38,310 bases of DNA from a phage: sequence record PX946180.1. One strand, written 5' to 3'. This document shows positions 6,507-38,310 of this stretch, in pieces. The notes below the pieces were generated by a model, which worked only from the letters and a program-made list of their open reading frames with translations, had not been told where the DNA came from and made no database searches. Numbering within the stretch: position 1 is the first letter of the stretch; every line of letters starts with the position of its first letter. The position numbers and the translations under genes were made by a program.

Positions 6507-6530
6507 CACTTACATTGATAGGAGTTAACT

Positions 6531-6698
6531 ATGAAATTTACAGTCATCGCGCTTTACGTCACCATCATTCTGTCTTGGCTGACTGCGGTCATAGCCGATG
6601 GGAATGCACTACGCCTTGGTTGGCTGGCAGTTGATATCATATTCTCTCCGGCAGGGGTAGTGAGGGGCATCTTGATGTGGTTTGGATTGGCGGGATAA
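6531..6698 (+). CDS. small hydrophobic early protein (55 aa)
   Basis: GGAG RBS 7 nt upstream; sequence MKFTVIALYVTIILSWLTAVIA.. is predicted membrane-spanning. Confidence 0.5.
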   Translation: MKFTVIALYVTIILSWLTAVIADGNALRLGWLAVDIIFSPAGVVRGILMWFGLAG

Positions 6699-6701
6699 AC
6701 T

Positions 6702-6899
6702 ATGAGTCTTGCACTATTGATAGCCATAGGCTATGGACTTATCGCCTACGTGCTGGTGAGAGACATCAACAAAGCGCGTAAAGTCTACAACTTCAATTAT
6801 GTACGCCTGGGCCGCTGGACTGTGCGTCAACCTAACGGGCGTTTCATGCGCAACCTCGCGAACGTCTGGGATATAGCAACTCTTGGGAGCAAACTGTAA
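6702..6899 (+). CDS. small hydrophobic early protein (65 aa)
   Basis: Tracker ORF; N-terminal TM segment MSLALLIAIGYGLIAYVLV; tightly packed with neighbours. Confidence 0.5.
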   Translation: MSLALLIAIGYGLIAYVLVRDINKARKVYNFNYVRLGRWTVRQPNGRFMRNLANVWDIATLGSKL

Positions 6900-7159
6900 T
6901 GAAAACCGTATACACACACAAACCATCAAGCCGCAGCCGCATGGAACAAGCGCAGCGTGATATGTTCTTACAACGCCGCATGAGAGCTGAGGGCCATAAG
7001 TCCGAACTGATGTGTCTGGCGTATGGTGGACGACCAATCACTGACGATGGTAAACTTCTGGTCTCAGGCTGGAAGGCGATAGACCAACGGTCAACCATCA
7101 AGCACACGACCGAAGGAGACTTCAGCCATCTACACGCTAACCCTCTGATATGCAAGTAA
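6899..7159 (+). CDS. hypothetical early protein (86 aa)
   Basis: Tracker ORF; start overlaps previous stop; occupies the position where T7 has gene 0.7 but shows no kinase similarity. Confidence 0.5.
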   Translation: MKTVYTHKPSSRSRMEQAQRDMFLQRRMRAEGHKSELMCLAYGGRPITDDGKLLVSGWKAIDQRSTIKHTTEGDFSHLHANPLICK

Positions 7160-7164
7160 TTATG

Positions 7165-7187
7165 ACTTAACTATCACTATAGGACTC
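7165..7187 (+). promoter_or_regulatory. phage RNAP promoter directly upstream of the RNAP gene, +1 G at 7182
   Basis: TTAACTATCACTATAGGACTC; followed by GACTCAAGGTC motif. Confidence 0.65.
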
Positions 7188-7256
7188 AAGGTCTAAGACT
7201 CAAAGTGAAAGACCAAAGAGACTTTAAGTGAAAGACTAATAACAAGGACTTTAAGT

Positions 7257-9104
7257 ATGAGCGTCATCTCTATTGACAAACACGACTTCTCTGATGTGTC
7301 GAACGCCATTGAGCCGTTTAACCTGCTGGCTGACCACTACGGGCAAGACCTCGCAGTAAAGCAGCTTCAGCTTGAGCATGAGGCATACACTGAAGGCGAG
7401 CGACGTTTCATCAAGAACCTTGAGCGCCAGACTGAGCGCGGGGAACTGGCAGACAATCAGGTCGCCAAGCCTTTGATGCAGACTCTGGTCCCGACCATCG
7501 CTAAGGCTTTCCGTGAGTGGCATGAAGGCCCGGACGGTAAGTCCTCGACCTCTCGTCCAAGCGTAGCGTTCACCATGCTGAGCACTGACGAGAAGGCTGT
7601 CAAAGACCGCTCTCTGCTCATCTCTGCGGAGTCTGCTGCGGTCATCATACTGAAGGTCATTCTCAGCAAGCTGGTCAAGCCTGAAGGCATCCCGATAACT
7701 CCTATGGCGTCCGCGATAGGTCGAACACTGGAAGATGAAATCCGCTTTGGTCGCATCCGTGATCAGGAGAAGGAGCACTTCAAGAAGGCGATAGCTGAGA
7801 ACCTGAACAAGCGCGCAGGGGTATCCTACAAGAAAGCCTACATGCAAGCGGTTGAGACCTCCATGTTGGAGCAAGGCCAACTGGAAGATGCCTGGGGAAC
7901 TTGGAGTCCGACCGAGGCGGTCCATGTTGGCATCAAGATGCTTGAGATTGTCATCCAGTCTACTCAACTGGTAGAGCTTAAGCGTTATGGTGCTGGCAAT
8001 GCAGCGGCGGACGTTGAGATGGTCCACCTGTCAGACTTCTGGGTCAAGAAGATGGCTCAGCGTGGCTTCTCTCTTGCGGGAATCGCTCCAGTCTACCAGC
8101 CATGCGTAGTTCCGCCTAAGCCGTGGACCGGGGTGGTGGGTGGTGGGTACTGGGCTAAAGGCCGAAGACCACTACCACTGATTCGCTTAGGGTCTAAGTC
8201 TGCGGTGGCACGTTACGAAGATGTATACATGCCTGAAGTCTACGACGCTGTGAATATCATTCAGAATACACCTTGGAAAGTGAACAAGAAGGTTCTGAAC
8301 GTGGTGAACATGGTCGAGAAGCTGAACAACACGCCTATTGATGACATCCCTCAGATGGAACCGCTGAAGCCTGAGGACTATGCGGGTGAGACTGAAGAAG
8401 AACTTAAGGCATGGAAGAAAGCTGCTGCCGGTATCTATCGCCGCGAGAAGGCCCGACAGTCACGAAGATTGTCACTGAGCTTTATCGTTAACCAAGCGAA
8501 CAAGTTCTCTCAGTTCAAGGCTATCTGGTTCCCGTATAACATGGATTGGCGAGGTCGTGTCTACGCTGTCCCGATGTTCAACCCTCAGGGTAACGACATG
8601 CAAAAGGGACTCCTGACTCTGGCAGTCGGTAAGCCTATTGGTGCTGATGGTTTCAAATGGCTGAAGGTACGCAAGAAGGATACCACTCGTCTGAACCTGA
8701 TGTTCTTAGGGTCATTCAACCTTCAGCCTACAGTCAACAAAGGCGCGAAGAAAGAGCTTGACAAACACAAGCAGGAGTCAGGTATTAGCCCGAACTTCGT
8801 CCACTCACAAGATGGCAGTCACCTCCGCAAGACTGTAGTCCACACGCACCGCAAGTATGGCGTGATGTCGTTCGCAGTGATCCACGATAGCTTCGGGACC
8901 ATCCCGGCTGACGCTGAGTATCTGTTCCGTGGTGTCCGTGAGACGATGGTCGAGACCTACCGCGACAACGATGTGCTGCTTGACTTCTATGAGCAGTTTG
9001 AATACCAGCTTCATGAGAGCCAGCGCGACAAGCTGCCAGAGCTTCCGAAGAAAGGTGAACTGAATATCGAAGACATCCTGTCTTCAGACTTTGCATTCGC
9101 TTAA
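7257..9104 (+). CDS. T7-like single-subunit RNA polymerase with ~268-codon internal in-frame deletion (catalytic motifs A and B missing; probably non-functional)
   Basis: 615 aa versus 883 aa for T7 RNAP; N-terminal ~464 aa and C-terminal ~151 aa are collinear with T7 (promoter-binding domain, specificity loop, HKQESG..FVHSQDGSHLRK, IHDSFGT, terminal FAFA); junction GFKWLK/VRKKDTTRLNLMFLG at about 8664-8669; no DGSCSG or TLAYGS motif anywhere in the ORF. Confidence 0.85.
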   Translation: MSVISIDKHDFSDVSNAIEPFNLLADHYGQDLAVKQLQLEHEAYTEGERRFIKNLERQTERGELADNQVAKPLMQTLVPTIAKAFREWHEGPDGKSSTSRPSVAFTMLSTDEKAVKDRSLLISAESAAVIILKVILSKLVKPEGIPITPMASAIGRTLEDEIRFGRIRDQEKEHFKKAIAENLNKRAGVSYKKAYMQAVETSMLEQGQLEDAWGTWSPTEAVHVGIKMLEIVIQSTQLVELKRYGAGNAAADVEMVHLSDFWVKKMAQRGFSLAGIAPVYQPCVVPPKPWTGVVGGGYWAKGRRPLPLIRLGSKSAVARYEDVYMPEVYDAVNIIQNTPWKVNKKVLNVVNMVEKLNNTPIDDIPQMEPLKPEDYAGETEEELKAWKKAAAGIYRREKARQSRRLSLSFIVNQANKFSQFKAIWFPYNMDWRGRVYAVPMFNPQGNDMQKGLLTLAVGKPIGADGFKWLKVRKKDTTRLNLMFLGSFNLQPTVNKGAKKELDKHKQESGISPNFVHSQDGSHLRKTVVHTHRKYGVMSFAVIHDSFGTIPADAEYLFRGVRETMVETYRDNDVLLDFYEQFEYQLHESQRDKLPELPKKGELNIEDILSSDFAFA

Positions 9105-9116
9105 CAGGAGAGAGTT

Positions 9117-9317
9117 ATGAAATTTGTACACAAGAAGACCGGCGTTAATGGTGGGACTCAAATAGTGACCGTAACAGAGCACAATGGTAAGGGTCTGGTG
9201 AAGACCACGGTCATCCCTACAGAGCTGTCAAAGCGTCTTAACGTAACATTCAAGTGGCTGGTTAATCTGGTTAAGCAGACACACGAGCAAGCTCTTAAAG
9301 AGGAGGCTACCAAATGA
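9117..9317 (+). CDS. hypothetical early protein (66 aa)
   Basis: Tracker ORF with GGAGAGAG RBS; no recognised homolog; T7 has no gene between gene 1 and 1.1. Confidence 0.5.
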   Translation: MKFVHKKTGVNGGTQIVTVTEHNGKGLVKTTVIPTELSKRLNVTFKWLVNLVKQTHEQALKEEATK

Positions 9318-9395
9318 CAGGCCTACAGTTGCTGGCCTTGTGGCTGGGAGCACTCGCAGTATTCACTTTAATCCAACGCAGAAGAGGTTAACCCT

Positions 9396-9866
9396 ATGTT
9401 CGGTAAGTCAAAACTTGAAGCACAAATCGTAGAGTTGAGCATGAAGGTGGCATACTTGGAGCGAGCCGTAAAGGTCCGGGATAAGGACAACGAGAGACTG
9501 AAGGCTAAACTTGCTGAATCAGAGCGTAAGCGCCTAACGCCACCAGCGGCTGTAACTGTCAAGCGTATGGTCGGCATCAAGTTCAAGGAACTGTTCGACG
9601 GTAAGTATCAGCCCACTGAGTTCAAGATAGGTCTTGGAAAGTGTGGAAAGGTGGTTCACTACTTCGAGGTGACTAAGCGTGACTACCTGACGATTACCAT
9701 CCACCAGTACCACACAGACGGGTCATCTAAGGACTTTGAGTATCGACTTAGCGACATCGACGGTCGTATACAGTACGACTACGAGCCGATGCAGGTCTAC
9801 GGTGAGGAGGCAGAGCAGGAACGTATAGTCCAAGCCTTCCGCAACAGACCACGATTCGTACCCTAA
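9396..9866 (+). CDS. hypothetical early protein (156 aa), N-terminal coiled-coil
   Basis: Tracker ORF; GAGG RBS; charged heptad-like N-terminus (KLEAQIVELSMKVAYLERAVKVRDKDNERLKAKLAESERK); no recognised homolog. Confidence 0.6.
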   Translation: MFGKSKLEAQIVELSMKVAYLERAVKVRDKDNERLKAKLAESERKRLTPPAAVTVKRMVGIKFKELFDGKYQPTEFKIGLGKCGKVVHYFEVTKRDYLTITIHQYHTDGSSKDFEYRLSDIDGRIQYDYEPMQVYGEEAEQERIVQAFRNRPRFVP

Positions 9867-9884
9867 ACTATCACTATAGGATTA
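9862..9884 (+). promoter_or_regulatory. phage RNAP promoter (phi1.1-like), +1 G at 9879
   Basis: CCTAAACTATCACTATAGGATTA. Confidence 0.75.
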
Positions 9885-9928
9885 GACTCAAGGTCATGAC
9901 TAAAAGTCGTGGCCTTCATGATTAACCC
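9884..9928 (+). promoter_or_regulatory. R1.1-like RNase III processing element
   Basis: AGACTCAAGGTCATGACTAAAAGTCGTGGCCTTCATGATTAACCC; same position (between gene 1 and 1.1) and same core as recalled T7 R1.1. Confidence 0.55.
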
Positions 9929-9957
9929 TAAATAAACACTACTGGAGATTTAACCAC

Positions 9958-10137
9958 ATGTATCAGAACACTATCAACTTCGAGCGCATCCGTGAACGTC
10001 AACAGACTGAAGGCTACATCCCGAAGGGCCGCAAGCTGAACAAGACTAAGCGAGGCGGTGGTGTCAAGGGTGCTTTCCGCAACGCTGAAGGCAAAGACTC
10101 GCTGGTAAACCAAGAGAAGTATTTCGTAGGAGCATAA
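9958..10137 (+). CDS. gp1.1-like small basic protein (59 aa)
   Basis: GRKLNKTKR motif as in recalled T7 gp1.1; GGAG RBS; immediately precedes gp1.2 homolog. Confidence 0.65.
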   Translation: MYQNTINFERIRERQQTEGYIPKGRKLNKTKRGGGVKGAFRNAEGKDSLVNQEKYFVGA

Positions 10138-10141
10138 GGCT

Positions 10142-10405
10142 ATGGGCCGACTTTATAGTGGCAACATCAACGCTTTCAAAGCAGCGCGTAACAGACTTTA
10201 TCAGTTAGACTTCTTCGTGATACAGCAGGACTGGTACGACGCGCATTTTCGGAAAGAGTGTATGAGACTTCAAGTCGAGGACCGAGCTGGTGACATCTTC
10301 GCTCTTAAGACCTTCGCACACTACGACGAAGACGTACTGTACAACACTGCAACCGACTTCCTTAACGGTCTCGCTGACCAACTAGACACATGGAGCAAAT
10401 CATAA
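10142..10405 (+). CDS. gp1.2-like inhibitor of host dGTPase
   Basis: 87 aa; MGRLYSGN..AFKAA.N.L.QLD...DWYDA..RK.C.RL..EDR.G matches recalled T7 gp1.2. Confidence 0.85.
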   Translation: MGRLYSGNINAFKAARNRLYQLDFFVIQQDWYDAHFRKECMRLQVEDRAGDIFALKTFAHYDEDVLYNTATDFLNGLADQLDTWSKS

Positions 10406-11472
10406 TGACAACGACTATCAAAACTAACCCACACCGAGCTGTAGATTACTCTGAGTCTGGCGTTAAGAAAGCGCTGGAAGCTGCTGGGTCGCTGGAAGCT
10501 GAAGTGAAGTACGATGGTGTCCGGTTTAATCTTCCGGTCTTCCCTACTGGTGAGACTCAATGGTTGAGCCGTGAGTCCAAAGAGCTTCCAGCGCTTCAGC
10601 ATCTGAAGTCAGAACGTGGGAGTCCTACCGAATTAACAAACCGTGGAGACTGGCGATGGTTCCTTAAACAGGCTGGCTACGAAGGTACGGGCCTGATGAT
10701 TGACGGCGAGGTCATGGTTCCTGCAACCGACTTCAACACTTCCTCAGGTCTAATCCGTACCATGTGGTCAGACACTAAGAACTACGCTTGGAATGGCAAC
10801 CCCGATGCTGACATCGACACCAAGAAGAAGCATAAGGTCCCTTTCCATCTGGCAACCGACCACATCCGCGTGGTTGTCTACGGGGTCATCGACCTTAACG
10901 TCATCCTCGACCCGAAAGCCGAAGGTCCCATCCATAGCGTCACACGCCTGAAGGCCGAAGCTATCGTCCCTCTCCTCCAGAAATACTTCCCGGAAATCGA
11001 CTGGGTTCTGTCTGAGTCACACACGGTCTATGACCTTGAGTCGCTCAACTCCCTGTACGAAGAGAAGCGTCTGGAAGGACACGAGGGTCTGGTAGTCAAG
11101 GACCCACTTGGTAAATATAAGCGTGGCAAGAAGTCAGGCATGTGGAAAATGAAGCCTGAGGAGACCATCGACGGGACCGTGTGTGGACTCGTGTGGGGGA
11201 CTCCGGGTAAGGCTAACGAAGGCAAGGTAATTGGCTTCGAGGTTCTGCTTGAGGATGGCATGGTGGTTAACGCCTGTGGTCTGACTGAAGAGCAGAAGGA
11301 TGAGTTTACGGAAGCCTGTAACACTGATACATATATTCTCGGTGGAATCAATCCATACGAAGGCTGGCAGTGCGAAGTTCTCTTCATGGAGCGGTTCCCT
11401 GATGGCTCCCTTCGCCACCCTAGCTTCAAGTGCTGGCGTGGAACGGAAGACAATCCAACCGTTAAGAGCTAA
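10390..11472 (+). CDS. ATP-dependent DNA ligase (T7 gp1.3-like); true start may be the ATG at 10405
   Basis: Adenylation motif EVKYDGVR, IKTNP, KPEE.IDG.V.GLVWGT.G.ANEGKVIGFEVLLE and C-terminal DGSLRHPSF..RGTEDNP all match recalled T7 ligase. Confidence 0.95.
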   Translation: MEQIIMTTTIKTNPHRAVDYSESGVKKALEAAGSLEAEVKYDGVRFNLPVFPTGETQWLSRESKELPALQHLKSERGSPTELTNRGDWRWFLKQAGYEGTGLMIDGEVMVPATDFNTSSGLIRTMWSDTKNYAWNGNPDADIDTKKKHKVPFHLATDHIRVVVYGVIDLNVILDPKAEGPIHSVTRLKAEAIVPLLQKYFPEIDWVLSESHTVYDLESLNSLYEEKRLEGHEGLVVKDPLGKYKRGKKSGMWKMKPEETIDGTVCGLVWGTPGKANEGKVIGFEVLLEDGMVVNACGLTEEQKDEFTEACNTDTYILGGINPYEGWQCEVLFMERFPDGSLRHPSFKCWRGTEDNPTVKS

Positions 11473-11483
11473 CTAAACGTCAA

Positions 11484-11520
11484 CCCAGTGGTCTTCGGAC
11501 TGCTGGGTTTCTTTGCTTTG
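11484..11520 (+). terminator. rho-independent terminator, T7 TE equivalent
   Basis: 10-bp stem CCCAGTGGTC/GACTGCTGGG (two G-U pairs) with TTCG tetraloop followed by TTTCTTTGCTTTG; located just after the ligase gene as T7 TE is. Confidence 0.8.
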
Positions 11521-11554
11521 TGCTAGCAAGCTATCGTCTGGGCCACCAGCATGA

Positions 11555-11577
11555 CCTAAGCTATCACTATAGGACAA
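11555..11577 (+). promoter_or_regulatory. phage RNAP promoter, +1 G at 11572
   Basis: CCTAAGCTATCACTATAGGACAA. Confidence 0.75.
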
Positions 11578-11605
11578 CCCTAACTTCGACCTAAGGAGGC
11601 CGACC

Positions 11606-11860
11606 ATGTTTAAGAACTTAATGTTCAATCGTTATACCAGTACATTCCACCTGTCTCACAACCCGTTCGCTTGCATTAAGCGTAACGAGAAGCTGGGCTA
11701 CTTCGGGAAGGCCGTTAAGCTGTCACCTACAGTCTTCGCTCTCATTACTCCGGGCAAAGCTGAAGAGGCTCGCCAGAAGCGTGAGACCAACGTACCTGTG
11801 GTCTACACCAAGTGGCCTCGCGTTCGTCTGTTCGTTGAGTTCGTGAAGGAGGTGTTCTGA
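11606..11860 (+). CDS. gp1.6-like protein
   Basis: 84 aa; C-terminal WPRVRLFVEFVKEVF resembles recalled T7 gp1.6 end FPFVRLLLKRIKEVF. Confidence 0.7.
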   Translation: MFKNLMFNRYTSTFHLSHNPFACIKRNEKLGYFGKAVKLSPTVFALITPGKAEEARQKRETNVPVVYTKWPRVRLFVEFVKEVF

Positions 11861-12432
11861 TGACTCCTTATGATAATATGATCATCAAGCTAATCGATAT
11901 GAACGACGGTAAGCCAGACCATTTATATAACTGTTCCTTCGAGTGTGCTGGAGTTCCTTGTAACATCTGCCCCGCTAAGGATGATGACGATATGACCTTA
12001 GGTGAAATCCGAGCGATGGACCCACGTAAGCCCCATCTGAATAAACCAGAGGTAACTCCCCCAGATGAACAGCCTTCCACTGAGTCACACAGCTGCGAAA
12101 GTATGTGCAACTGTGAGCGGGACTATGATACAAGCGATGGACATGCCTTGGATTGTACTATCCACAACGCCACTGCCCCAGTAAATACAATCGAAGGTGT
12201 CACTAAGCCTTCCCATTACATGCTGTTCGACGACATTGAGGCCATCGAAGTGATTGCCCGTTCAATGACTCGTGAACAGTTCAAAGGGTACTGCTTCGGT
12301 AACGTCCTGAAGTATCGACTCCGGGCTGGTAAGAAGTCCGAGCTGGCTACTATGGAGAAGGACCTGAACAAAGCAGCCTTCTATCAGGAGCTGTTCGACC
12401 TACATAAAGGTAAGTGCTATGCTGCCGAGTGA
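11860..12432 (+). CDS. gp1.7-like nucleotide kinase
   Basis: 190 aa; Cys-rich N-terminus and C-terminal FKGYCFGNVLKYRLRAGKK motif as in recalled T7 gp1.7. Confidence 0.75.
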   Translation: MTPYDNMIIKLIDMNDGKPDHLYNCSFECAGVPCNICPAKDDDDMTLGEIRAMDPRKPHLNKPEVTPPDEQPSTESHSCESMCNCERDYDTSDGHALDCTIHNATAPVNTIEGVTKPSHYMLFDDIEAIEVIARSMTREQFKGYCFGNVLKYRLRAGKKSELATMEKDLNKAAFYQELFDLHKGKCYAAE

Positions 12433-19356: not shown

Positions 19357-19520
19357 TGGCTAAAACTTATAGTGAGCAGGAGGTCAAAGACTTGATGCGG
19401 TCAGCTTGGTGGTGTGGACACGAGGAGTCTCGTTATAGTCCAAACCTCAGTGGTTCATGCAGTCGAGACATCCGTGAAATTCTTAAAGACCATAACGAAG
19501 AAGACGAAGGAGAAATCTAA
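19356..19520 (+). CDS. small hypothetical protein (54 aa)
   Basis: ATG overlaps DNAP stop (TAATG); trimmed from tracker ORF 19338..19520. Confidence 0.4.
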   Translation: MAKTYSEQEVKDLMRSAWWCGHEESRYSPNLSGSCSRDIREILKDHNEEDEGEI

Positions 19521-19792
19521 TGGCTATTACTAAACGCTTGACCTGTAAGTTTGACATGAAGATCGTCTTTACGTCTGAGGACGTTGAGTCATACGCTCTT
19601 GAGCTGGTGGAGCTGACCAAGTGTTATGTCTCCGGTGAGAAAATGGATGGTATGGCCCGTAAGCTGGTAGAGACTGCTGTAGAGCATGGGGTCGAAGCTG
19701 CCATTGAGCTGCACCTGAAGTCTGTTCTGGCGTCAAAACTGAAAGACGAGATGCAAGAGGTCTACAACATCAGCACGAGGTTCAAGCAATGA
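19520..19792 (+). CDS. gp5.5-like protein (assigned by position)
   Basis: 90 aa tracker ORF immediately upstream of the gp5.7 homolog; similarity to T7 gp5.5 not confirmed. Confidence 0.5.
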   Translation: MAITKRLTCKFDMKIVFTSEDVESYALELVELTKCYVSGEKMDGMARKLVETAVEHGVEAAIELHLKSVLASKLKDEMQEVYNISTRFKQ

Positions 19793-19998
19793 GTGAATAC
19801 TTACGGGTCCTAGCGGCCCTTAAGTCCTGCCCGAAGACCTTCCAGTCCAACTATGTGCGCAACAACGCTGCACTGGTGGCTGAGGCTGCGAGTCGTGGAC
19901 ATCTGAGCTGCCTGTCTATGGACGGGCGTAACAACGGTGCGTGGGAGATTACCGCTGCTGGCACCAAGTTCCTGAACCAACACGGAGGCTGTCTATGA
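19789..19998 (+). CDS. gp5.7-like protein
   Basis: 69 aa; LKSCPKTFQSNYVRNNA.LVAEAASRGH.SCL...GRN.GAWEITA.GT.FL...GGC nearly identical to recalled T7 gp5.7. Confidence 0.9.
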   Translation: MSEYLRVLAALKSCPKTFQSNYVRNNAALVAEAASRGHLSCLSMDGRNNGAWEITAAGTKFLNQHGGCL

Positions 19999-20231
19999 GT
20001 GAACTGGATTTACTGAAGAAGTTTGACGAGCTTATGTCACTCCTTAATGGTGAAGAGAACTCAATGGCTGAAGAGTTCCGCGAGGCTTTAGCAGCTAAGT
20101 TAGACCGTGCCGCTGATGATCGACTCTGGCGGGAGTGCTTGGAGTCTGGCGGGGTTGACAACTGGTCTTGGTTCTCTGAGTCACTGTCTGAAGGTGGATA
20201 CTACAAGGAGGACGACGATGACTTCGAATAA
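19995..20231 (+). CDS. acidic hypothetical protein (78 aa) at the gene 5.9 position
   Basis: ATG overlaps gp5.7 stop; strongly acidic, ends EDDDDFE; no sequence match to recalled T7 gp5.9. Confidence 0.5.
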   Translation: MSELDLLKKFDELMSLLNGEENSMAEEFREALAAKLDRAADDRLWRECLESGGVDNWSWFSESLSEGGYYKEDDDDFE

Positions 20232-22470: not shown

Positions 22471-24039
22471 ATGGCTGAACGTGAAGGGTTCGCTGCTGAA
22501 GGAGCCAAAGCGGTCTATGACCGACTGAAGAACGGTAGACAGCCATATGAGACACGCGCTCAGAACTGTGCTGCTGTCACTATCCCGTCACTGTTTCCTA
22601 AGGAGTCCGATAACTCGTCTACTGAGTATACAACTCCGTGGCAAGCTGTAGGTGCTCGCTGCTTGAACAACTTGGCTGCAAAGCTGATGTTGGCGTTATT
22701 CCCTCAGTCACCGTGGATGCGACTAACAGTCTCCGAATATGAGGCCAAGACCTTGAGTCAAGACTCAGAGGCTGCTGCTCGTGTTGACGAAGGGCTGGCT
22801 ATGGTCGAGCGTGTATTGATGGCCTACATGGAGACCAACAGTTTTCGTGTGCCATTGTTCGAAGCTCTGAAGCAGCTTATCGTCTCCGGTAACTGTCTGC
22901 TCTACATTCCAGAGCCTGAACAGGGAACCTACAGTCCTATGCGAATGTACCGCTTAGTGTCTTACGTTGTTCAACGTGATGCTTTCGGTAATATCTTGCA
23001 GATTGTGACTCTCGACAAGGTAGCGTTCAGTGCTCTACCGGAAGACGTGAAGTCACAACTCAACGCAGACGACTATGAGCCTGACACCGAGCTGGAAGTG
23101 TATACGCACATCTATCGTCAGGACGACGAGTATCTACGCTATGAGGAAGTTGAAGGCATTGAGGTAGCAGGGACCGAGGGTTCCTACCCACTTACTGCAT
23201 GTCCATACATCCCGGTACGAATGGTTAGACTTGACGGTGAAGACTATGGTCGTTCTTATTGCGAGGAGTATCTGGGAGACCTGAACTCGCTGGAGACGAT
23301 TACAGAAGCTATCACCAAAATGGCTAAGGTAGCCTCCAAGGTGGTTGGCCTCGTTAACCCGAACGGTATCACGCAACCTCGTCGTCTGAACAAGGCGGCT
23401 ACAGGTGAGTTCGTGGCTGGTCGCGTTGAGGACATCAACTTCCTGCAACTGACGAAGGGTCAGGACTTTACGATTGCTAAGTCGGTAGCTGACGCTATCG
23501 AGCAACGTTTAGGCTGGGCCTTCCTTCTTAATAGTGCTGTTCAGCGTAATGCCGAGCGGGTCACTGCTGAAGAGATTCGTTATGTTGCTGGCGAACTGGA
23601 GGCGACCTTAGGTGGCGTGTACTCAGTACAATCACAAGAGCTTCAGTTACCTATAGTCCGTGTGCTGATGAACCAGCTTCAGTCTGCTGGCATGATTCCT
23701 GACCTCCCGAAAGAAGCGGTAGAGCCTACGGTCTCCACTGGTCTGGAAGCGTTAGGTCGTGGTCAAGACTTAGAGAAGCTGACTCAGGCAGTCAACATGA
23801 TGACCGGGCTACAGCCTCTGCAACAGGACCCAGACATTAACTTGCCGACCCTGAAGCTGCGACTGCTGAATGCCTTAGGCATTGACACCGCTGGTCTGCT
23901 GCTGACTCAGGACGAGAAGTTACAACGTATGGCTGAACAATCAGCTCAAGGAGCTGTGGTCAACGGTGCGTCTGCTGCTGGTTCTACTATGGGTGCTGCT
24001 GTAGGTCAGGGAGCTGGTGAGGACATGGCTCAAGCCTAA
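22471..24039 (+). CDS. portal (head-tail connector) protein (T7 gp8-like)
   Basis: 522 aa; size and position after gp7.3 as in T7 (536 aa); AGGAGG RBS. Confidence 0.9.
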   Translation: MAEREGFAAEGAKAVYDRLKNGRQPYETRAQNCAAVTIPSLFPKESDNSSTEYTTPWQAVGARCLNNLAAKLMLALFPQSPWMRLTVSEYEAKTLSQDSEAAARVDEGLAMVERVLMAYMETNSFRVPLFEALKQLIVSGNCLLYIPEPEQGTYSPMRMYRLVSYVVQRDAFGNILQIVTLDKVAFSALPEDVKSQLNADDYEPDTELEVYTHIYRQDDEYLRYEEVEGIEVAGTEGSYPLTACPYIPVRMVRLDGEDYGRSYCEEYLGDLNSLETITEAITKMAKVASKVVGLVNPNGITQPRRLNKAATGEFVAGRVEDINFLQLTKGQDFTIAKSVADAIEQRLGWAFLLNSAVQRNAERVTAEEIRYVAGELEATLGGVYSVQSQELQLPIVRVLMNQLQSAGMIPDLPKEAVEPTVSTGLEALGRGQDLEKLTQAVNMMTGLQPLQQDPDINLPTLKLRLLNALGIDTAGLLLTQDEKLQRMAEQSAQGAVVNGASAAGSTMGAAVGQGAGEDMAQA

Positions 24040-24057
24040 ACTATCACTATAGGAACA
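24035..24057 (+). promoter_or_regulatory. phage RNAP promoter (phi9-like), +1 G at 24052; transcript starts with a 9-bp stem
   Basis: CCTAAACTATCACTATAGGAACAACG; inverted repeat GGAACAACG (24052-24060) / CGTTGTTCC (24091-24099). Confidence 0.8.
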
Positions 24058-24128
24058 ACGTCTGGTCTACAATTTGTAGGTTTCTAGTCCCGTTGTTCCT
24101 ACCATTTCAATCAAAGGAGAATGACTCA

Positions 24129-25013
24129 ATGTCTCAATCAGTTTATGCCGAGTTCGGCGTTAGCTCTAATGCAATCACTGGTTCCGTTGAGGACCTGAAC
24201 GAACACCAGAAGTCTATGCTTGAACAGGACGTAGCTGTTCGTGATGGCGATGACGCTATTACCTTCAAGCAACTGGAAGCCGAGAACGAAGAGGCGACCG
24301 AAGAAGACGAGAACGTCGAAGAGACTGAAGGTGAAGACGACCACGAGTCCGATGACGAAGAGTCAGAGACCGATGGTGAGCAGCCTGAGTTCATCGAACT
24401 TGGTGATGCACCGAAAGAGCTGACCGAAAGTGTCGCCGCTCTTGATGAAAACGAAGCCGCATTCGACGACATGGTGTCTTCTGCTGTAGAAGCTGGCAAG
24501 GTCACTGCTGATGAAATTACCGCTATCAAGGCCGAATACGCCAAGGACGGTAAGCTGTCTGACGCATCCTACGCTAAGTTGCAGGAAGCAGGTTACACCA
24601 AGCGTTTCGTAGATTCGTTTGTCCGTGGTCAGGAAGCTCTGGCTGAACAGTACGCTGCTGGTGTGGTTCGCTATGCTGGTGGTGCTGAACAGTTTAATCG
24701 CATCCTGTCACACCTTGAGTCTAACGACCCGTCAACTCGTGAAGCACTGGAAGCTGCTATCGTTCGTAAGGACATTGCTACTACCAAAGCTCTGCTGAAT
24801 CTGGCTGGCAAGACTCTGGGTAAAGCTGTAGGCGTCAAACCTCAGCGTACCATCACCACTCAGGCTAAACCTGTGGTCGCACCTAAGGCTCCTCAGACCG
24901 AAGCATTCAGCTCCAAGGCTGACATGATTAAGGCTATGAGTGACCCGCGATACCTGCGTGACGCTAAGTACACGATGGAAGTTCGCGCTAAGGTAGCCGC
25001 CTCAAGCCTGTAG
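24129..25013 (+). CDS. capsid assembly scaffolding protein (T7 gp9-like)
   Basis: 294 aa from ATG 24129 (AAGGAG 9 nt upstream; tracker ORF starts at an upstream TTG); highly acidic middle; SYAKL.E.GYTK.F.DS..RGQEAL.EQY and KAMSDPRY match recalled T7 gp9. Confidence 0.92.
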   Translation: MSQSVYAEFGVSSNAITGSVEDLNEHQKSMLEQDVAVRDGDDAITFKQLEAENEEATEEDENVEETEGEDDHESDDEESETDGEQPEFIELGDAPKELTESVAALDENEAAFDDMVSSAVEAGKVTADEITAIKAEYAKDGKLSDASYAKLQEAGYTKRFVDSFVRGQEALAEQYAAGVVRYAGGAEQFNRILSHLESNDPSTREALEAAIVRKDIATTKALLNLAGKTLGKAVGVKPQRTITTQAKPVVAPKAPQTEAFSSKADMIKAMSDPRYLRDAKYTMEVRAKVAASSL

Positions 25014-25014
25014 G

Positions 25015-25037
25015 ACTAAACTATCACTATAGGGAGA
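25015..25037 (+). promoter_or_regulatory. phage RNAP late promoter (phi10-like), +1 G at 25032; 5' stem-loop in the leader
   Basis: GACTAAACTATCACTATAGGGAGACCA, best match to the T7 class III TATAGGGAGA start; leader GGGAGACC...GGTTTCCC can form an 8-bp stem as in the T7 phi10 transcript. Confidence 0.85.
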
Positions 25038-25139
25038 CCAAGAGAAAGACTCAAGGTTTCCCTATTACTTCAGTCCATACGGATTGGGCATACAGTAAGT
25101 AATAAACTTTATCTTTCAATTGTATAGGAGAATTATCAT

Positions 25140-25839
25140 ATGGCAAACGTTCCGGGTCAGAAAATTGGTACAGACCAAGGTAAAGGCAAATCCAGTTCCG
25201 ACGCTAATGGCTCTCCTGTGTAACCTCCCGGCTGCATCCAACGAGAACATTGCCGGTCTGGGCACTGCGTCAGTACTTGAAGTTGGTACTAAAGCCGACC
25301 TGAACACTCCGGCTAAGCTGGGTGAAGCAATCATCGGTCAACTGACCATTGCTCGTGCGAAGCTGACCTCCAACTACGTTCCTGCTGGCGACCGTTACTT
25401 CTACACCACGCCGGACAACTACTCTGCAATCCTCGCGGCTCTGATGCCGAACGCTGCCAACTATGCTGCGCTGATTGACCCAGAGACTGGTAACATCCGT
25501 AACGTGATGGGCTTCGTTGTTGTTGAAGTCCCGCATCTGGTGCAGGGTGGTGCTGGTGAGACCCGTGGTGACGATGGCATCACTATCGCTTCCGGCCAGA
25601 AACACGCATTCCCGGCGACTGCTGCTGACGATGTTAAAGTTGCTATGGACAACGTTGTGGGTCTGTTCTCTCACCGTTCTGCTGTGGGTACTGTGAAGCT
25701 GCGTGACTTGGCGCTGGAACGTGACCGTGACGTCGATGCTCAGGGCGACCTGATTGTTGGTAAGTACGCTATGGGTCACGGCGGCCTGCGTCCAGAAGCG
25801 GCAGGCGCACTGGTTTTCACAGCGGCGCTGGGGGGTTAA
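25140..25839 (+). pseudogene. major capsid protein gene (gene 10A), disrupted: first 16 codons and last ~205 codons present, ~120 central codons missing, junction out of frame
   Basis: ATG 25140 with RBS encodes MANVPGQKIGTDQGKG (matches the recalled T7 gp10 N-terminus) then stops at 25221-25223 after 27 codons; the +1 frame from about 25213 encodes LCNLPAASNENIAGLGTAS... to the stop at 25839, collinear with T7 gp10A residues ~145-345; only ~810 nt separate the phi10 start site from the capsid stop. Confidence 0.8.
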
Positions 25840-26102
25840 CGACCTTTAAGGCCCTCTCTACAGAGGGTCCTACCTTAGAGATGTACAGTTCTACGGTGGG
25901 GACCAGCCTGAAGGTTGACTTCCCTGAGCTTTCAGATGTGACCGATTGGTCGCTGCTTGAGGTGACTACGCCTGATGGTGTTAGCTACTCCCGTAGAACC
26001 AACAGTCTCTACTTCAAGGCCACCTCTGGCGTGGAAGGTCTAGTGATTGTTGAGTATGACGGTTCGCCTGTGCGTTCCTTCAACGTATCTTTCACAAACT
26101 AA
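25812..26102 (+). CDS. minor capsid 10B C-terminal extension reached by -1 programmed frameshift at GGTTTTC
   Basis: Slippery heptamer G GTT TTC at 25812-25818, five codons before the 10A stop, the same site as in T7; the -1 frame is open from there to the stop at 26102 (tracker ORF 25881..26102 is its 3' part); extension is rich in beta-strand-like residues. Confidence 0.65.
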   Translation, partial: GFHSGAGGLTTFKALSTEGPTLEMYSSTVGTSLKVDFPELSDVTDWSLLEVTTPDGVSYSRRTNSLYFKATSGVEGLVIVEYDGSPVRSFNVSFTN

Positions 26103-26105
26103 TTG

Positions 26106-26148
26106 AAACCCCTTGGGTGCCTTCGGGTGCTTGAGGGGTTTTTTTTGC
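26106..26148 (+). terminator. rho-independent terminator, T7 Tphi equivalent
   Basis: AACCCCTTGGGTGCCTTCGGGTGCTTGAGGGGTTTTTTTT: GC-rich hairpin followed by a run of eight T; directly after the capsid gene as T7 Tphi is. Confidence 0.85.
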
Positions 26149-26161
26149 TTAAGGAGGTCCT

Positions 26162-26728
26162 ATGGCTCAATACATTCCACTGAATGCTAACGATGACTTA
26201 GATGCCATCAACGATATGTTAGCTGCTATCGGTGAACCAGCAGTCCTGCAGCTTGACGAAGGTAACGCTGACGTCTCGAACGCACAACGTATCCTGCATC
26301 GTGTCAATCGTCAGGTCCAAGCTAAAGGCTGGAACTTTAACATCAACGAAGCTGCTGTACTGACACCTGATGTCCAAGACAATAGGATTCGATTCCTGCC
26401 GTCATACCTTCGTGTAATGACTGCCGGGGCCACCAGCTACTACAGCAACATGGGTGGATACCTGTACGACCTATCCACTCAGTCAACCACTTTCACCGAC
26501 CCTATAACGGTAGAGCTTGTTGAGATGAAACCGTTCTCTGAGATGCCTGTGGTATTCAGGGACTACATCGTTACCAAGGCCAGCCGTGAGTTCAACGCTA
26601 AGTTCTTCGGTAGCCCAGAGTCTGAACTGTACCTTCGTGAGCAGGAAGCAGAACTCTATCAGCAGGTCATGGAATACGAGATGGACACTGGTCGCTACAA
26701 CATGATGTCCGACATCGGGAGGGACTAA
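26162..26728 (+). CDS. tail tubular protein A (T7 gp11-like)
   Basis: 188 aa; IGEP, NA.RIL..NRQ.Q..GW.FNI.E, TKASR.FN..FFG.PE and EYEMD.G.YNM match recalled T7 gp11. Confidence 0.92.
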   Translation: MAQYIPLNANDDLDAINDMLAAIGEPAVLQLDEGNADVSNAQRILHRVNRQVQAKGWNFNINEAAVLTPDVQDNRIRFLPSYLRVMTAGATSYYSNMGGYLYDLSTQSTTFTDPITVELVEMKPFSEMPVVFRDYIVTKASREFNAKFFGSPESELYLREQEAELYQQVMEYEMDTGRYNMMSDIGRD

Positions 26729-26955
26729 TGGCAGCGCATAATCTGAAGATTCACCGCCAGCACTTTGGTCCGGTACAACTAGGCCTAAAGACAGCAGAAC
26801 TGAGACTTAACGACCGGGACTTTAAGGTTGGCGACTGGCTTATCCTGAATGAGTGGGACAACGGGTATACTGGGCAACAGGTAGCACGTAAGGTTGTCCA
26901 CATTGCTGACGTTGGTGACATCGCTGAGGGATACGTCCTAATGAGTATGATTTAA
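26728..26955 (+). CDS. small ASCH/DUF3850-like protein inserted between tail tubular genes
   Basis: 75 aa; pattern H..HFGPV..G.KTAELRLNDRDFKVGDWLILNEWD..YTG resembles the DUF3850/ASCH small PUA-like fold as I recall it; T7 gp11 and gp12 are adjacent with no gene between. Confidence 0.55.
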   Translation: MAAHNLKIHRQHFGPVQLGLKTAELRLNDRDFKVGDWLILNEWDNGYTGQQVARKVVHIADVGDIAEGYVLMSMI

Positions 26956-26964
26956 GGAGGGCCT

Positions 26965-29322
26965 ATGCCACTAATTACTCAATCAATCAAGAACCTTAAA
27001 GGTGGTATTAGCCAGCAGCCAGACATACTGAGGTTCTCAGACCAAGGCGAGGCGCAAGTTAACTGCTGGTCATCCGAAAGTGATGGACTCCAGAAGCGTC
27101 CACCTACAGTCTTCAAGCGACGTCTTAGCATCGACGTTGGGAGCAACCCTAAGTTCCACCTGATTAACCGTGATGAGCAGGAGCAGTATTACATCGTGTT
27201 CAACGGGTCCAACATTCAGGTAGTTGACTTGAGTGGTAATCAATACTCAGTTTCAGGTGCGGTAGATTACGTTGAGTCGTCCAACCCGCGAGATGACATC
27301 CGTGTCGTTACCGTTGCAGACTATACGTTCGTAGTTAACCGTAAGGTTGTAGTCAAAGGTGGAAGCGAGAAGTCACACTCTGGCTATAACCGCAAAGCAC
27401 GAGCTTTAATTAACCTGCGTGGTGGACAGTATGGTAGAACCCTTAAGGTGGGAATCAACGGAGGCGTTAAGGTCTCGCATAAGTTACCAGCAGGTAATGA
27501 TGCCGAGAATGACCCACCTAAGGTGGACGCTCAAGCCATTGGTGCAGCTCTGAGAGACCTTCTTGTTGCTGCCTATCCTACCTTCACGTTTGACCTTGGG
27601 TCTGGCTTCCTGCTAATCACAGCTCCTTCAGGGACCGACATTAACTCAGTGGAGACGGAGGATGGCTACGCTAACCAGCTAATAAGCCCAGTCCTAGACA
27701 CTGTGCAGACAATCTCTAAACTACCTCTTGCCGCTCCTAATGGATATATCATTAAGATTCAAGGTGAGACCAACAGTAGCGCCGATGAATACTACGTGAT
27801 GTATGACTCCAACACTAAGACGTGGAAGGAGACAGTGGAGCCGGGAGTTGTCACTGGGTTCGATGTCACCACAATGCCACATGCTCTTGTCAGACAGTCT
27901 GATGGCTCCTTTGAGTTCAAGACTCTGGATTGGTCCAAGCGTGGCTCTGGCAACGATGACACAAACCCTATGCCTAGCTTCGTGGATGCTGCGATTAATG
28001 ATGTGTTCTTCTACAGGAACAGACTTGGGTTCTTGTCAGGTGAGAACGTAATCATGAGCCGTTCAGCCAGCTACTTTGCGTTCTTCCCTAAGAGTGTGGC
28101 TACACTGAGCGATGATGACCCTATTGATGTAGCTGTAAGTCACCCTCGAATCTCAATCCTTAAGTATGCCGTTCCGTTTAGCGAGCAGCTACTACTTTGG
28201 TCGGATGAGGTGCAGTTCGTGATGACAAGCTCTGGGGTACTTACCTCGAGGTCTATCCAGCTTGATGTAGGCTCAGAGTTTGCCTTAGGCGACAATGCCA
28301 GACCGTTCGCTGTAGGACGCTCAGTCTTCTTCTCAGCGCCTCGTGGGTCATTCACCAGCATTAAGCGATACTTCGCTGTAGCTGATGTGTCTGATGTGAA
28401 GGATGCCGATGATACAACTGGTCACGTACTGTCCTACATCCCTAACGGGGTGTTTGATATTCAAGGTACAGGGACTGAGAACTACATCTGCGTCAACTCT
28501 ACAGGTGCATACAACCGAATCTACATCTACAAGTTCTTGTTTAAGGACGGCGTACAGCTTCAAGCCTCTTGGTCGCACTGGGAGTTCCCTAAAGCTGATA
28601 AGATTCTGGCGTCTGCGTCGATTGGCTCTACCATGTTCATTGTTCGTCAGCACCAAGGCGGCGTGGACCTTGAGCACCTTAAGTTCATCAAGGAGGCAAC
28701 TGACTTTCCATTAGAGCCGTATAGACTCCACGTTGACTCCAAGGTGTCTATGGTAATACCAATTGGCTCATACAACGCTGACACCTATAAGACTACGGTT
28801 GACATTGGCGCTGCTTATGGTGGCAACGCTCCGTCTCCCGGTCGGTACTATCTTATTGACAGTCAGGGTGCTTATGTGGACCTTGGGGACTTGACCAGTA
28901 GCTCTACTGTGGTTATCCTCAACGGCGATTGGTCAGGACGTACAGTGTTCATCGGACGGTCCTATCTGATGTCCTACAAGTTCTCACGGTTCCTGATTAA
29001 GATTGAAGATGATAGTGGCACTCAGTCTGAAGACACGGGTCGTCTACAGCTTCGTCGGGCTTGGGTCAACTACAAAGACACTGGCGCTCTGAGACTAATT
29101 GTCAGAAACGGTGAGCGGGAGTTCGTGAATACCTTCAACGGGTACACCCTTGGGCAGCAAACCATCGGGACTACAAACATCGGTGACGGGCAGTATCGCT
29201 TCGCTATGAATGGTAACGCATTAACCACGAGTCTAACCTTAGAGTCTGACTATCCTACCCCAGTGTCAATCGTTGGGTGTGGCTGGGAGGCGTCATACGC
29301 TAAGAAAGCTCGTTCCGTCTAA
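26965..29322 (+). CDS. tail tubular protein B (T7 gp12-like)
   Basis: 785 aa; N-terminus LITQSIKNLKGGISQQPDILR and internal motifs (DPIDVAVS, ILKYAVPFSE, GRLQLRRAWVNY, IVGCGWE) match recalled T7 gp12. Confidence 0.95.
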   Translation: MPLITQSIKNLKGGISQQPDILRFSDQGEAQVNCWSSESDGLQKRPPTVFKRRLSIDVGSNPKFHLINRDEQEQYYIVFNGSNIQVVDLSGNQYSVSGAVDYVESSNPRDDIRVVTVADYTFVVNRKVVVKGGSEKSHSGYNRKARALINLRGGQYGRTLKVGINGGVKVSHKLPAGNDAENDPPKVDAQAIGAALRDLLVAAYPTFTFDLGSGFLLITAPSGTDINSVETEDGYANQLISPVLDTVQTISKLPLAAPNGYIIKIQGETNSSADEYYVMYDSNTKTWKETVEPGVVTGFDVTTMPHALVRQSDGSFEFKTLDWSKRGSGNDDTNPMPSFVDAAINDVFFYRNRLGFLSGENVIMSRSASYFAFFPKSVATLSDDDPIDVAVSHPRISILKYAVPFSEQLLLWSDEVQFVMTSSGVLTSRSIQLDVGSEFALGDNARPFAVGRSVFFSAPRGSFTSIKRYFAVADVSDVKDADDTTGHVLSYIPNGVFDIQGTGTENYICVNSTGAYNRIYIYKFLFKDGVQLQASWSHWEFPKADKILASASIGSTMFIVRQHQGGVDLEHLKFIKEATDFPLEPYRLHVDSKVSMVIPIGSYNADTYKTTVDIGAAYGGNAPSPGRYYLIDSQGAYVDLGDLTSSSTVVILNGDWSGRTVFIGRSYLMSYKFSRFLIKIEDDSGTQSEDTGRLQLRRAWVNYKDTGALRLIVRNGEREFVNTFNGYTLGQQTIGTTNIGDGQYRFAMNGNALTTSLTLESDYPTPVSIVGCGWEASYAKKARSV

Positions 29323-36691: not shown

Positions 36692-38310
36692 ATGTCCACG
36701 ATTACACAATTCCCTTCAGGAAACACTCAGTACAGGATTGAGTTCGACTACCTAGCCAGAACGTTTATTGTTGTTACGCTGGTGAATAGCTCTAACCCTA
36801 CCCTGAACCGTGTACTGGAAGTTGGTCGAGATTACCGATTCCTTAATCCAACGATGCTTGAGATGTTGGTTGACCAATCAGGTTTCGACATCGTTCGTAT
36901 TCACCGTCAGACTGGAACTGACTTAGTGGTAGACTTCAGGAATGGCTCAGTGTTGACAGCTAGTGACCTGACCAATGCAGAGCTTCAGGCTATCCATATT
37001 GCAGAAGAAGGTCGAGACCAAACTGTTGACTTAGCGAAGGAATATGCCGATGCTGCTGGTAACTCTGCTGGCAACGCTAAGGACAGCGAGGACGAAGCAC
37101 GCCGAATCGCTGAGAGTATCAAGGCAGCTGGTCTAACTGGCTATATTACCCGTAGATCCTTCGAGAAAGGCTTCAACGTTACAACATGGAACGAGGTCCT
37201 GCTATGGGAGGATGATGGTGAATATTACCGCTGGGATGGTACGCTCCCAAAGAACGTTCCTGCTGGCTCAACTCCTGAATCATCTGGTGGAATTGGATTA
37301 GGAGCGTGGGTTAGTGTTGGTGATGCATCGCTGAGATCTCAGATAGCCTCCGTAACCGGATTTAATCTTGTAGGTCAGGTGCCAGATGTAACTACATTAC
37401 GCAATACAGAACCGACAACAGACAGCAAGAGAATCCTCCTTCGCGAATACACAGCAGGCACAGGATATGGTGGCGGTCAGTTACGAGCAATCCTTGACGG
37501 AAGCTCTTACGTTGACAACGGCGTTACTGTGTTTAAAACAACTGGTGGTGCTGCATGGGTCCGCGTTAACGCAGATATCATTACATCCTTCATGGCGGGT
37601 GCTGTGCCTGATGCAGGTACTACTGATAACACGGCTGCTATTAATCGCTTCCTCGCCGCAGGTAAGAAATTGGTTATGAGGGATGGTATCTTTGGTCATT
37701 CTGGTCAAATTTCTTTGCAAACAGGTATATCTCTTGATTTATCTGGAGCGACAATAAAACCATCATCGACTCTACTCACCGCTGCTTGGGTGGGGAGCAA
37801 CTTGTTTGATGTAAAAATAACCGGCGGCGTGTTTGAAGGAACTGGCTTGGACAATACAGCTGGCAACGGCCATCTTTTGCTGCTTTCTAATTGCCAAGGG
37901 TGCTACGTAGATGGCACTACATTTACGAAATCTCCGCAGGATGGATTGCGATTTGTATCTTGTACACGATGTATTGCGAGTAACGCTATTTCGTACAACA
38001 ACCTTTCTGTAGGTATTCAAGACCGCGATGGGGATTACAACACTATCATTGGGTGTAAATGTAACGGTAATGGTAATACAGGAACGGTTGCTGGAGTTGG
38101 TGGTCGAGGTATTCTCACATGGCGTAGCTTTGGCACAAAAGTTATCGCCTGTGACGCGTTCAATAACACAGAGTATGGCATTCGGGCATATTCGCAAGCA
38201 GGAGATTCCAGAGGTTCGACTCAAATCCTGATTAGTGATTGCCACACCGGCGATAACACTAAGATTGATATTTACGTGTACAACGAAATCGGAAGCCTGT
38301 CTGAGATACT
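36692..38310 (+). CDS. tail fiber/tailspike, 5' part (T7 gp17-like N-terminal adaptor plus start of beta-helix domain); continues at 1..857
   Basis: ATG 36692 with AAGGAGG RBS; N-terminal ~150 aa resemble the recalled T7 gp17 tail-attachment domain (FDYLAR.F.VVTL, DYRF, LV.DF..GS.L.A.DL, HIAEE.RD); frame stays open to the window end and continues at position 1; total about 782 aa. Confidence 0.9.
   Translation, partial: MSTITQFPSGNTQYRIEFDYLARTFIVVTLVNSSNPTLNRVLEVGRDYRFLNPTMLEMLVDQSGFDIVRIHRQTGTDLVVDFRNGSVLTASDLTNAELQAIHIAEEGRDQTVDLAKEYADAAGNSAGNAKDSEDEARRIAESIKAAGLTGYITRRSFEKGFNVTTWNEVLLWEDDGEYYRWDGTLPKNVPAGSTPESSGGIGLGAWVSVGDASLRSQIASVTGFNLVGQVPDVTTLRNTEPTTDSKRILLREYTAGTGYGGGQLRAILDGSSYVDNGVTVFKTTGGAAWVRVNADIITSFMAGAVPDAGTTDNTAAINRFLAAGKKLVMRDGIFGHSGQISLQTGISLDLSGATIKPSSTLLTAAWVGSNLFDVKITGGVFEGTGLDNTAGNGHLLLLSNCQGCYVDGTTFTKSPQDGLRFVSCTRCIASNAISYNNLSVGIQDRDGDYNTIIGCKCNGNGNTGTVAGVGGRGILTWRSFGTKVIACDAFNNTEYGIRAYSQAGDSRGSTQILISDCHTGDNTKIDIYVYNEIGSLSEI
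38184..38310 (+). repeat. assembly overlap: exact copy of positions 1-127 (circular contig artifact)
   Basis: Direct comparison: 38184-38310 is identical to 1-127 and lies inside the tail fiber coding sequence. Confidence 0.9.

Follow-up and report, generated by a model that had tools for sequence, protein, structure and literature searches.

In Kayfunavirus, the K1F-like branch of the T7 family, the capsid gene (gene 10) lies in a cassette whose parts are shared from one phage to the next. In K1F, EcoDS1, LM33_P1 and PhiNW-B1, as in the genome analysed here, gene 10 has the same promoter for the phage RNA polymerase (RNAP), the same leader hairpin, ribosomal binding site (RBS) and first 22 codons, and the same last 210 codons, slippery heptamer, 10B extension and terminator, with flanks at 94-99% nucleotide identity. 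The heptamer, G GTT TTC, reportedly has its T7 precedent in work by Condron et al. in 1991 on the −1 frameshifting between 10A and 10B. Where our genome departs from this layout is inside the gene, in that 350 bp present in 128 of the 128 relatives spanning the position are missing.

Losses of DNA and of autonomy have both been described among such phages. T7 deletions form between short direct repeats, which is a classic observation; Studier and colleagues are said to have found short direct repeats at spontaneous deletions of the T7 early region, and Pierce, Kong and Masker reportedly described in 1991 further T7 deletions between short direct repeats. Derivatives of T7 that lack an essential gene can be maintained by supplying its product in trans: low-copy T7Select display vectors are grown on hosts that provide gp10A, and phages deleted for gene 1, the RNAP gene, on hosts that express the polymerase. 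Outside T7, defective interfering or cheater genomes, such as the f1 miniphage and the defective interfering particles of RNA viruses, lack diffusible "public good" functions and depend on a helper. Cheaters of MS2 are a further example of defective viral genomes (PMC7442481).

Here we analyse a stretch of DNA of 38,310 nucleotides (sequence record PX946180.1), called the window below, in which gene 10 and the RNAP gene each carry one internal deletion. An earlier, sequence-only reading had noticed that the capsid gene was disrupted and that part of the RNAP gene was gone. We compared both genes with those of relatives, located the two junctions and weighed what might have produced them. The reading that we prefer, to which we give a little better than an even chance, is that the window represents real, recently arisen defective genomes whose propagation relied on complementation, either from a helper phage or, with lower probability, from a complementing host.

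Results

The contig and its lineage

When positions 24000-27000 and 1-12000 are compared with GenBank phages by megablast, the window falls in Kayfunavirus (K1F-like Studiervirinae, T7 family), about 94-96% identical to its GenBank relatives. Its backbone, about 5% from every GenBank record, is that of a wild lineage that had not been described before. The contig has identical ends:

1 to 127 and 38184 to 38310, no strand: end overlap, identical over 127 nt

An identity of exactly 127 nt marks the contig as one that a de Bruijn assembler (SPAdes-type, k=127) has circularised, and the unique genome amounts to 38,183 bp. The contig closes on itself and is permuted, with position 1 inside the tail-spike gene, and the window holds no N. 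The physical terminal repeat of the phage lies collapsed at some point in the stretch from the terminase gene to the early region.

In a tblastn comparison with 35 proteins of one relative, the window proved to be a near-complete coliphage genome in which the conserved genes other than those for RNAP and capsid are all full length and in a single frame, including terminase, primase-helicase, DNA polymerase, exonuclease, portal, scaffold, gp11, gp12 and gp13-15. Because all of these other genes are full length and unbroken, the window is a high-quality sequence bearing two specific lesions.

The remaining differences from relatives are of a familiar kind. Four segments (9396-9866, 11860-12432, 19520-19792 and 19941-20231) are absent or divergent in the nearest relatives. 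Their products are a gp1.05-like protein, a nucleotide-kinase homologue of 190 aa extended at its N-terminus, an H-NS inhibitor resembling gp5.5 and a RecBCD inhibitor resembling gp5.9. An ORF for an HNH endonuclease (1937-2374) overlaps the start of the terminase large-subunit gene and is 66% identical to its counterpart in the nearest relative, against 98% for the terminase; the relative 101118UKE1 has a different ORF in this position. All window-specific segments are thus T7-family accessory genes (gp1.05-like, nucleotide kinase, gp5.5, gp5.9-like and HNH endonuclease), and the variable segments are ordinary accessory-gene mosaicism. The tail-spike gene, 36692-38310 joined to 128-857, encodes an intact protein of 782 aa across the circular join, with a T7 tail-fibre N domain, a TSP1/Gp66 N domain and a right-handed beta-helix. 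Since it matches the closest relatives in its first ~223 residues only, the part for receptor binding or depolymerase activity has been swapped as a module. A conserved ORF of 75 aa (26728-26955) separates the tail-tube genes 11 and 12; it is named "RNA-binding protein" or "activating signal cointegrator" in relatives and lies at a place where T7 has no gene.

A 350-bp deletion inside an intact gene 10 cassette

The cassette contains the following features:

25020 to 25037, + strand: phage-RNAP promoter of gene 10 (phi10 equivalent), ACTATCACTATAGGGAGA, found by pattern search and aligning to the annotated promoter of EcoDS1
25033 to 25061, + strand: 5' stem-loop at the start of the gene 10 transcript, hairpin GGAGACC...GGUUUCC
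25126 to 25131, + strand: RBS AGGAGA, 8 nt before the ATG, read from the sequence and identical in relatives
25140 to 25223, + strand: truncated gene 10 frame, with 22 native codons (25140-25205), 5 out-of-frame codons and TAA
25205 to 25206, + strand: deletion junction (25205 / 25206), 350 bp missing, no microhomology
25207 to 25839, + strand: 3' remnant of gene 10 with residues 140-349 and the stop codon, in another frame than the start (Pfam, tblastn)
25812 to 25818, + strand: slippery heptamer G GTT TTC for 10A/10B −1 frameshifting, by sequence and in the correct phase
25818 to 26102, + strand: −1 frame 10B extension of 94 open codons, matching PHROG 7473
26105 to 26150, + strand: intrinsic terminator after gene 10 (Tphi equivalent), a 17-pair stem at 26105-26142 followed by a T-run

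Seven sites on the + strand share ACTATCACTATAGG, where 0.04 would be expected by chance; the search pattern was the gene 10 site itself, so that the sole perfect match at gene 10 is true by construction. The hairpin is present in both the MFE and the centroid structure, and the leader as a whole has z = −1.98. At the 3' end, EcoDS1 annotates the equivalent of the 10B extension as a "region of similarity to gp10B". With promoter, hairpin, RBS, heptamer, 10B frame and terminator all in place, the lesion lies within an otherwise intact cassette, as the sequence-only reading had it.

From the RBS-preceded ATG at 25140 the frame runs for 27 codons, MANVPGQKIGTDQGKGKSSSDANGSPV, to a TAA at 25221-25223; both the sequence and the ORF reading bear out this start and this end. 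Relatives have 349 codons here, and from this ATG the window holds no continuous ORF of ~340-350 codons. The rest of the protein is read in the +1 frame, ...MALLCNLPAASNENIAGLGTAS... / ...MALLCNLPAASNENIAGLG..., as far as a TAA at 25837-25839. Alignment with two relatives leaves one gap of 350 columns, which whole-genome BLAST reproduces. The best local proxy for the parent is PhiNW-B1, whose flanks are identical at 66 of 66 and 297 of 300 positions (100% and 99%) and which carries exactly 350 extra bases at the junction, CTGGCG...CTGGCTGA; four other relatives show the same gap of 350 bp. The deletion removes codons 23-139 plus 2 nt, so that codon 22 is followed directly by the third base of codon 139. 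Its length is not a multiple of three, as had been claimed, and codons 140-349 are out of frame downstream.

These boundaries refine the earlier ones. A fusion of a native start to a displaced C-terminal part stands, although its native part is 22 codons long, rather than the 16 first proposed: by tblastn, residues 1-22 are 100% identical to many Kayfunavirus capsids, and the shorter figure had been obtained against T7, whose sequence departs sooner. The second frame does run to 25839, but homology resumes at 25206/25207 (residue 140) and not at about 25213. Likewise a block is missing, though in place of T7 residues ~18-140 it comprises the Kayfunavirus codons given above, as alignment to PhiNW-B1 establishes. 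The 3' remnant is 94% identical to residues 140-349 of a relative and begins at the native internal codon for Met140 (25207), whose ATG overlaps the end of the short ORF; no Shine-Dalgarno sequence is seen at a functional distance from it. Translation from the strong native start would thus give a peptide of 27 residues and then stop, and re-initiation at the Met140 codon, at most a trace, would give a C-terminal fragment of 210 residues. The lesion is a null allele of a well-known gene and brings with it no new mechanism or gene family.

What the capsid protein loses

The remnant matches Pfam PF21703 (Gp10A-like, HK97 fold) at E = 2.8e-65, over positions 81-279 of the 279 in the profile only. 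The intact protein can be aligned over its whole length with two solved structures, T7 gp10A and the nearly identical capsid 9vvq. An AlphaFold (AF2) model of the intact proxy has a mean pLDDT of 64.7, with low confidence in the N-terminal 67 residues, as expected for a monomer, and contains a helix at 22-33, a long strand at 91-105 and a long spine helix at 116-144. Going by this model, the deletion would remove the N-arm helix, the whole extended-loop region, strand 91-105 and 24 of the 29 residues of the spine helix. Residues invariant across 47 homologues number 55 of 117 in the deleted block and 75 of 230 in the rest of the protein, which makes the block the most conserved part of the capsid. 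Of the best 120 homologue clusters in a database of 5.8 billion proteins, 118 are 337-354 aa long, and the two short ones come from tiny contigs of 2.6 kb and 0.9 kb. With neither N-arm helix nor extended-loop region and with little of the spine helix, the 210-residue fragment that starts at Met140 should, judging from the fold, be unable to build an HK97-type shell.

The RNA polymerase gene

The second lesion lies 16.5 kb from the first:

7257 to 9104, + strand: phage RNAP gene with an in-frame deletion of 834 bp, junction at 8668-8670, located by BLAST and anchored extraction

Its ORF encodes 615 aa against 893 aa in relatives, 834 bp or 278 codons being missing in frame, and the claim of an RNAP deletion is thereby confirmed. 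The junction, set by BLAST coordinates and anchored extraction since MAFFT misplaced the gap, reads CTG AAG GTA / CGC AAG. Residues 472-749 are lost, corresponding to T7 463-739 in an alignment to T7 RNAP structures and including the segment AFDGSCSGIQH; tblastn with intact relative proteins finds no copy of them elsewhere in the window. The lost part covers the equivalents of T7 Asp537, Lys631 and Tyr639 (palm and fingers, catalytic), with His811 and Asp812 kept. Because these catalytic positions are gone, the enzyme is predicted to be dead, and all phage promoters, that of gene 10 included, would be silent. With the capsid gene knocked out and the catalytic core of the polymerase removed, the genome as written cannot grow on its own.

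Specificity and age of the lesions

All 128 GenBank records that span a 241-nt query across the capsid junction match it in two pieces over 590-591 bp, with the 350 bp present, and a Logan contig also carries them. Since no spanning record lacks the segment, the capsid lesion is specific to the window and not a trait of the lineage. Neither junction occurs in any relative among ~200 GenBank phages. The capsid junction had no match in IMG/VR, JGI metagenomes, GTDB genomes, RefSeq E. coli genomes or PLSDB plasmids, and the RNAP junction was absent from GenBank relatives, IMG/VR and JGI metagenomes; in IMG/VR, a 41-mer of the window away from the junctions had no match either. Look-ups of exact protein sequences also came back empty, and the window as a whole is absent from the collections searched.

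Several simple accounts fall away. A short capsid peculiar to the lineage is rejected by the 128 of 128 relatives and the Logan contig with the 350 bp, together with the 118 of 120 full-length clusters. The missing segments have not moved to another place in the window, where tblastn finds neither capsid residues 23-139 nor RNAP residues 472-749; a full capsid gene elsewhere, which the sequence-only reading had named among its possible refutations, did not turn up in the window. Nor does the 207-aa homologue P0029 represent an independent recurrence, because its junction is a different one and its contig has ~3x coverage.

That contig, NODE_1804 of ENA ERZ1755817 (2,634 bp, ~3x, a metagenome contig of a related phage), joins an unrelated tip of ~55 nt to the capsid at about residue 127, and a 207-aa "capsid" is called on it from the same internal Met as in the window. 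This junction is probably a chimeric contig tip.

The age of the lesions can be judged from the remnants. In a comparison with three relatives the capsid remnant has a pN/pS of 0.10 and the C-terminal remnant of the RNAP one of 0.04-0.05, both within the 0.02-0.12 of intact genes. An old pseudogene is thereby rejected. As neither remnant has relaxed constraint, both deletions postdate essentially all divergence of the lineage and are either recent events or artefacts.

Anatomy of the two junctions

The junctions differ in kind, and no repeat longer than 11 nt lies near either. At the capsid junction the two ends meet bluntly and share no microhomology; the longest word common to both breakpoints has 5 nt, for which a simulation of random breakpoints gives P = 0.70. 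The RNAP breakpoints, on the other hand, fall at the 3' ends of an imperfect direct repeat that is in phase and has an exact core of 11 nt, CTGATGGTTTC. The left copy reads CTGATGGTTTC-AAA-TGGCTGAAGGTA and the right copy, which lies inside the deleted DNA and is reconstructed from relatives, CTGATGGTTTC-CCTGTC-TGGCAGGAATAC, so that two DGF.W motifs are encoded. The left copy survives entire in the window, where it runs into the sequence that lies beyond the right one; the join, as placed from the reconstructed right copy, is 15-18 nt downstream of the exact core. Among random pairs of breakpoints in the RNAP gene, 0.017% have within 40 nt a shared word in register that is 11 nt or longer (P = 1.7e-4), and the observed breakpoints therefore appear to be non-random.

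The RNAP lesion resembles the short-repeat deletions of T7 in its in-phase imperfect repeat with an 11-nt core and in that machinery for annealing and exonuclease trimming is phage-encoded. It departs from them in two respects, since in T7 non-essential early genes are hit and the crossover lies inside the exact repeat, whereas in the window essential genes are hit and the RNAP join lies 15-18 nt past the core; the capsid deletion has no repeat at all. We suggest that the two copies of the RNAP repeat annealed, that the flaps were trimmed and the heteroduplex replicated, and that one of the daughters had the arrangement of the window. T7 gp2.5 has a role in recombination (PMC2553585), and T7 gp6 is an exonuclease/flap endonuclease (PMC4124056). 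By tblastn, the genes for gp2.5 and the gp6 exonuclease are intact in the window, and an origin of the RNAP deletion by repeat annealing would be compatible with these roles and with the short-repeat deletions of T7. The blunt 350-bp excision in the capsid gene may instead have come from illegitimate recombination.

The left edge of the capsid deletion is the first base of the only stretch over which the capsid genes of Kayfunavirus and T7 can be aligned by megablast. An intact Kayfunavirus genome aligns to T7 in this way in terminase, RNAP and capsid only. The coincidence may reflect no more than the start of capsid conservation at codon 23, or be due to chance.

Discussion

Any account of the window has to start from what it contains, namely two lesions of defined extent, unique among the sequences searched and recent or artificial, in a genome that is otherwise intact. 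We infer that deletion-bearing molecules existed, that both lesions sat on one molecule, and that such molecules were propagated with help. A contig of a k=127 de Bruijn graph requires that the 127-mers across each junction existed in the reads, and this, with no assembler-relevant repeat at either junction and an N count of 0, argues for real molecules. The deletions would have arisen in a phage population in which complementation was available, and the genome would be transcribed, replicated and packaged only if another source, either an intact relative infecting the same cell or a complementing host, provided RNAP and capsid protein in trans. Several points weigh against real defective genomes. 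A doubly defective lytic population is hard to maintain, at 3% shorter than wild type and with no obvious replicative advantage; the blunt capsid junction would fit a random artificial cut equally well; and neither junction occurs in the other public sequence searched.

Some of these points also feed the strongest rival, that the deletions were introduced by library preparation, assembly or later handling and that the real phage has intact genes 1 and 10. We think this unlikely, and still a possibility to be reckoned with. The routes would be chimeras from whole-genome amplification (WGA) or PCR, a scaffold stripped of its gaps, a wrong path in a tangled graph at very high coverage, or editing of the record, whether deliberate or accidental. 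No plaques can come from a lytic phage that has neither RNAP nor capsid, and apart from the deletions the contig is perfect and complete, as it would be if the true genome were intact; the remnants have not decayed; the capsid junction is blunt; and both junctions are unique in all collections searched. In addition, the capsid block starts where nucleotide similarity to T7 starts and is the most conserved part of the gene, which hints at a similarity-based process. The obvious process of that kind, subtraction of reads against T7-derived sequence (gene 1 of BL21(DE3), gene 10 fragments of pET vectors), is rejected, because the deleted blocks are 50-84% identical to T7, no higher than the retained parts (equal or higher, up to 0.88), and the terminase block is intact. 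Against an artefact of assembly, a k=127 graph makes a join only where reads run across it, repeats of 127 nt or even of 21 nt are absent there, and the window has no gap characters. Random cutting would not place the RNAP breakpoints against an 11-nt in-phase repeat (P about 2e-4), and a polymerase jumping with a 15-nt mismatched 3' tail explains them poorly.

Within the preferred reading of real defective genomes, the propagation might have been natural. A helper-dependent "cheater" genome could have shed RNAP and capsid and come to dominate, or two singly defective genomes could have complemented each other; we regard either as doubtful. In the manner of known defective interfering genomes, the window lacks diffusible functions and would depend on a helper, given that its capsid frame is broken and its RNAP lacks AFDGSCSGIQH. 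What replication and packaging need in cis may have been kept, in that the contig closes on itself and the other genes and seven promoter-like sites are present. The window differs from the known examples in being only 3% shorter than wild type. We found no defective interfering, cheater or double-knockout genome of the T7 family in the searchable literature; if either of these two natural readings were true, the window would represent an entity like a defective interfering particle in a dsDNA podovirus.

A deliberate origin is less probable again, and we consider it quite improbable. The phage would have been made replication-incompetent (biocontained) by knocking out genes 1 and 10 and supplying both proteins from plasmids in the host. 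These two are the classic trans-complementable genes of T7, routinely supplied in trans to its derivatives, and they are the very targets hit in the window; a clean contig with both lesions fits a pure stock on a complementing host; and the in-frame loss of the RNAP catalytic core spares downstream genes, and the early frameshift in the capsid gene guarantees a null. Trans-complemented T7 derivatives differ, however, in having a T7 backbone, whereas that of the window is an undescribed wild Kayfunavirus lineage, ~5% from every GenBank record, with no vector or cloning site. No scar, marker, reporter or other foreign sequence was found, all window-specific segments being T7-family accessory genes, and the capsid junction falls within a codon and has no designed feature. 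As a design it would be poor, since partial internal deletions leave long homology to the complementing copy and would revert readily, and the literature searched holds no matching construct.

That the capsid is still functional, through recoding that joins the pieces or a shell built by the 210-residue fragment alone or by another gene, is scarcely credible: some coupled re-initiation is conceivable at the ATG at 25207, which overlaps the end of the short ORF, but a repaired frame would still lack 117 residues (55 of them invariant across the 47 homologues) with the N-arm helix and 24 of 29 spine-helix residues, all but two of the 120 closest homologue clusters have a length of 337-354 aa, the window has no second capsid-like sequence and, near 25190-25223, no slippery motif and no Shine-Dalgarno sequence, and with the RNAP dead, gene 10 would go untranscribed anyway. 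Rescue by recoding is rejected in particular, with no plausible +1 slippery context near 25205-25223 and the 117 residues missing even after repair.

Whichever account holds, the locus offers neither a new capsid architecture nor a new expression mechanism. If the deletions are artefacts, the record needs repair before it is annotated or used as a reference, and a census of gene lengths against relatives, combined with the anatomy of the junctions, quickly flags defective records of this kind. If instead they are real, as we prefer to think, a T7-like population would have contained abundant non-autonomous genomes. This would affect the quality of phage-therapy stocks, in which particle counts would exceed the infectious titre and a deposited "complete genome" would be non-viable, and it would bear on the little-studied social evolution of lytic dsDNA phages.
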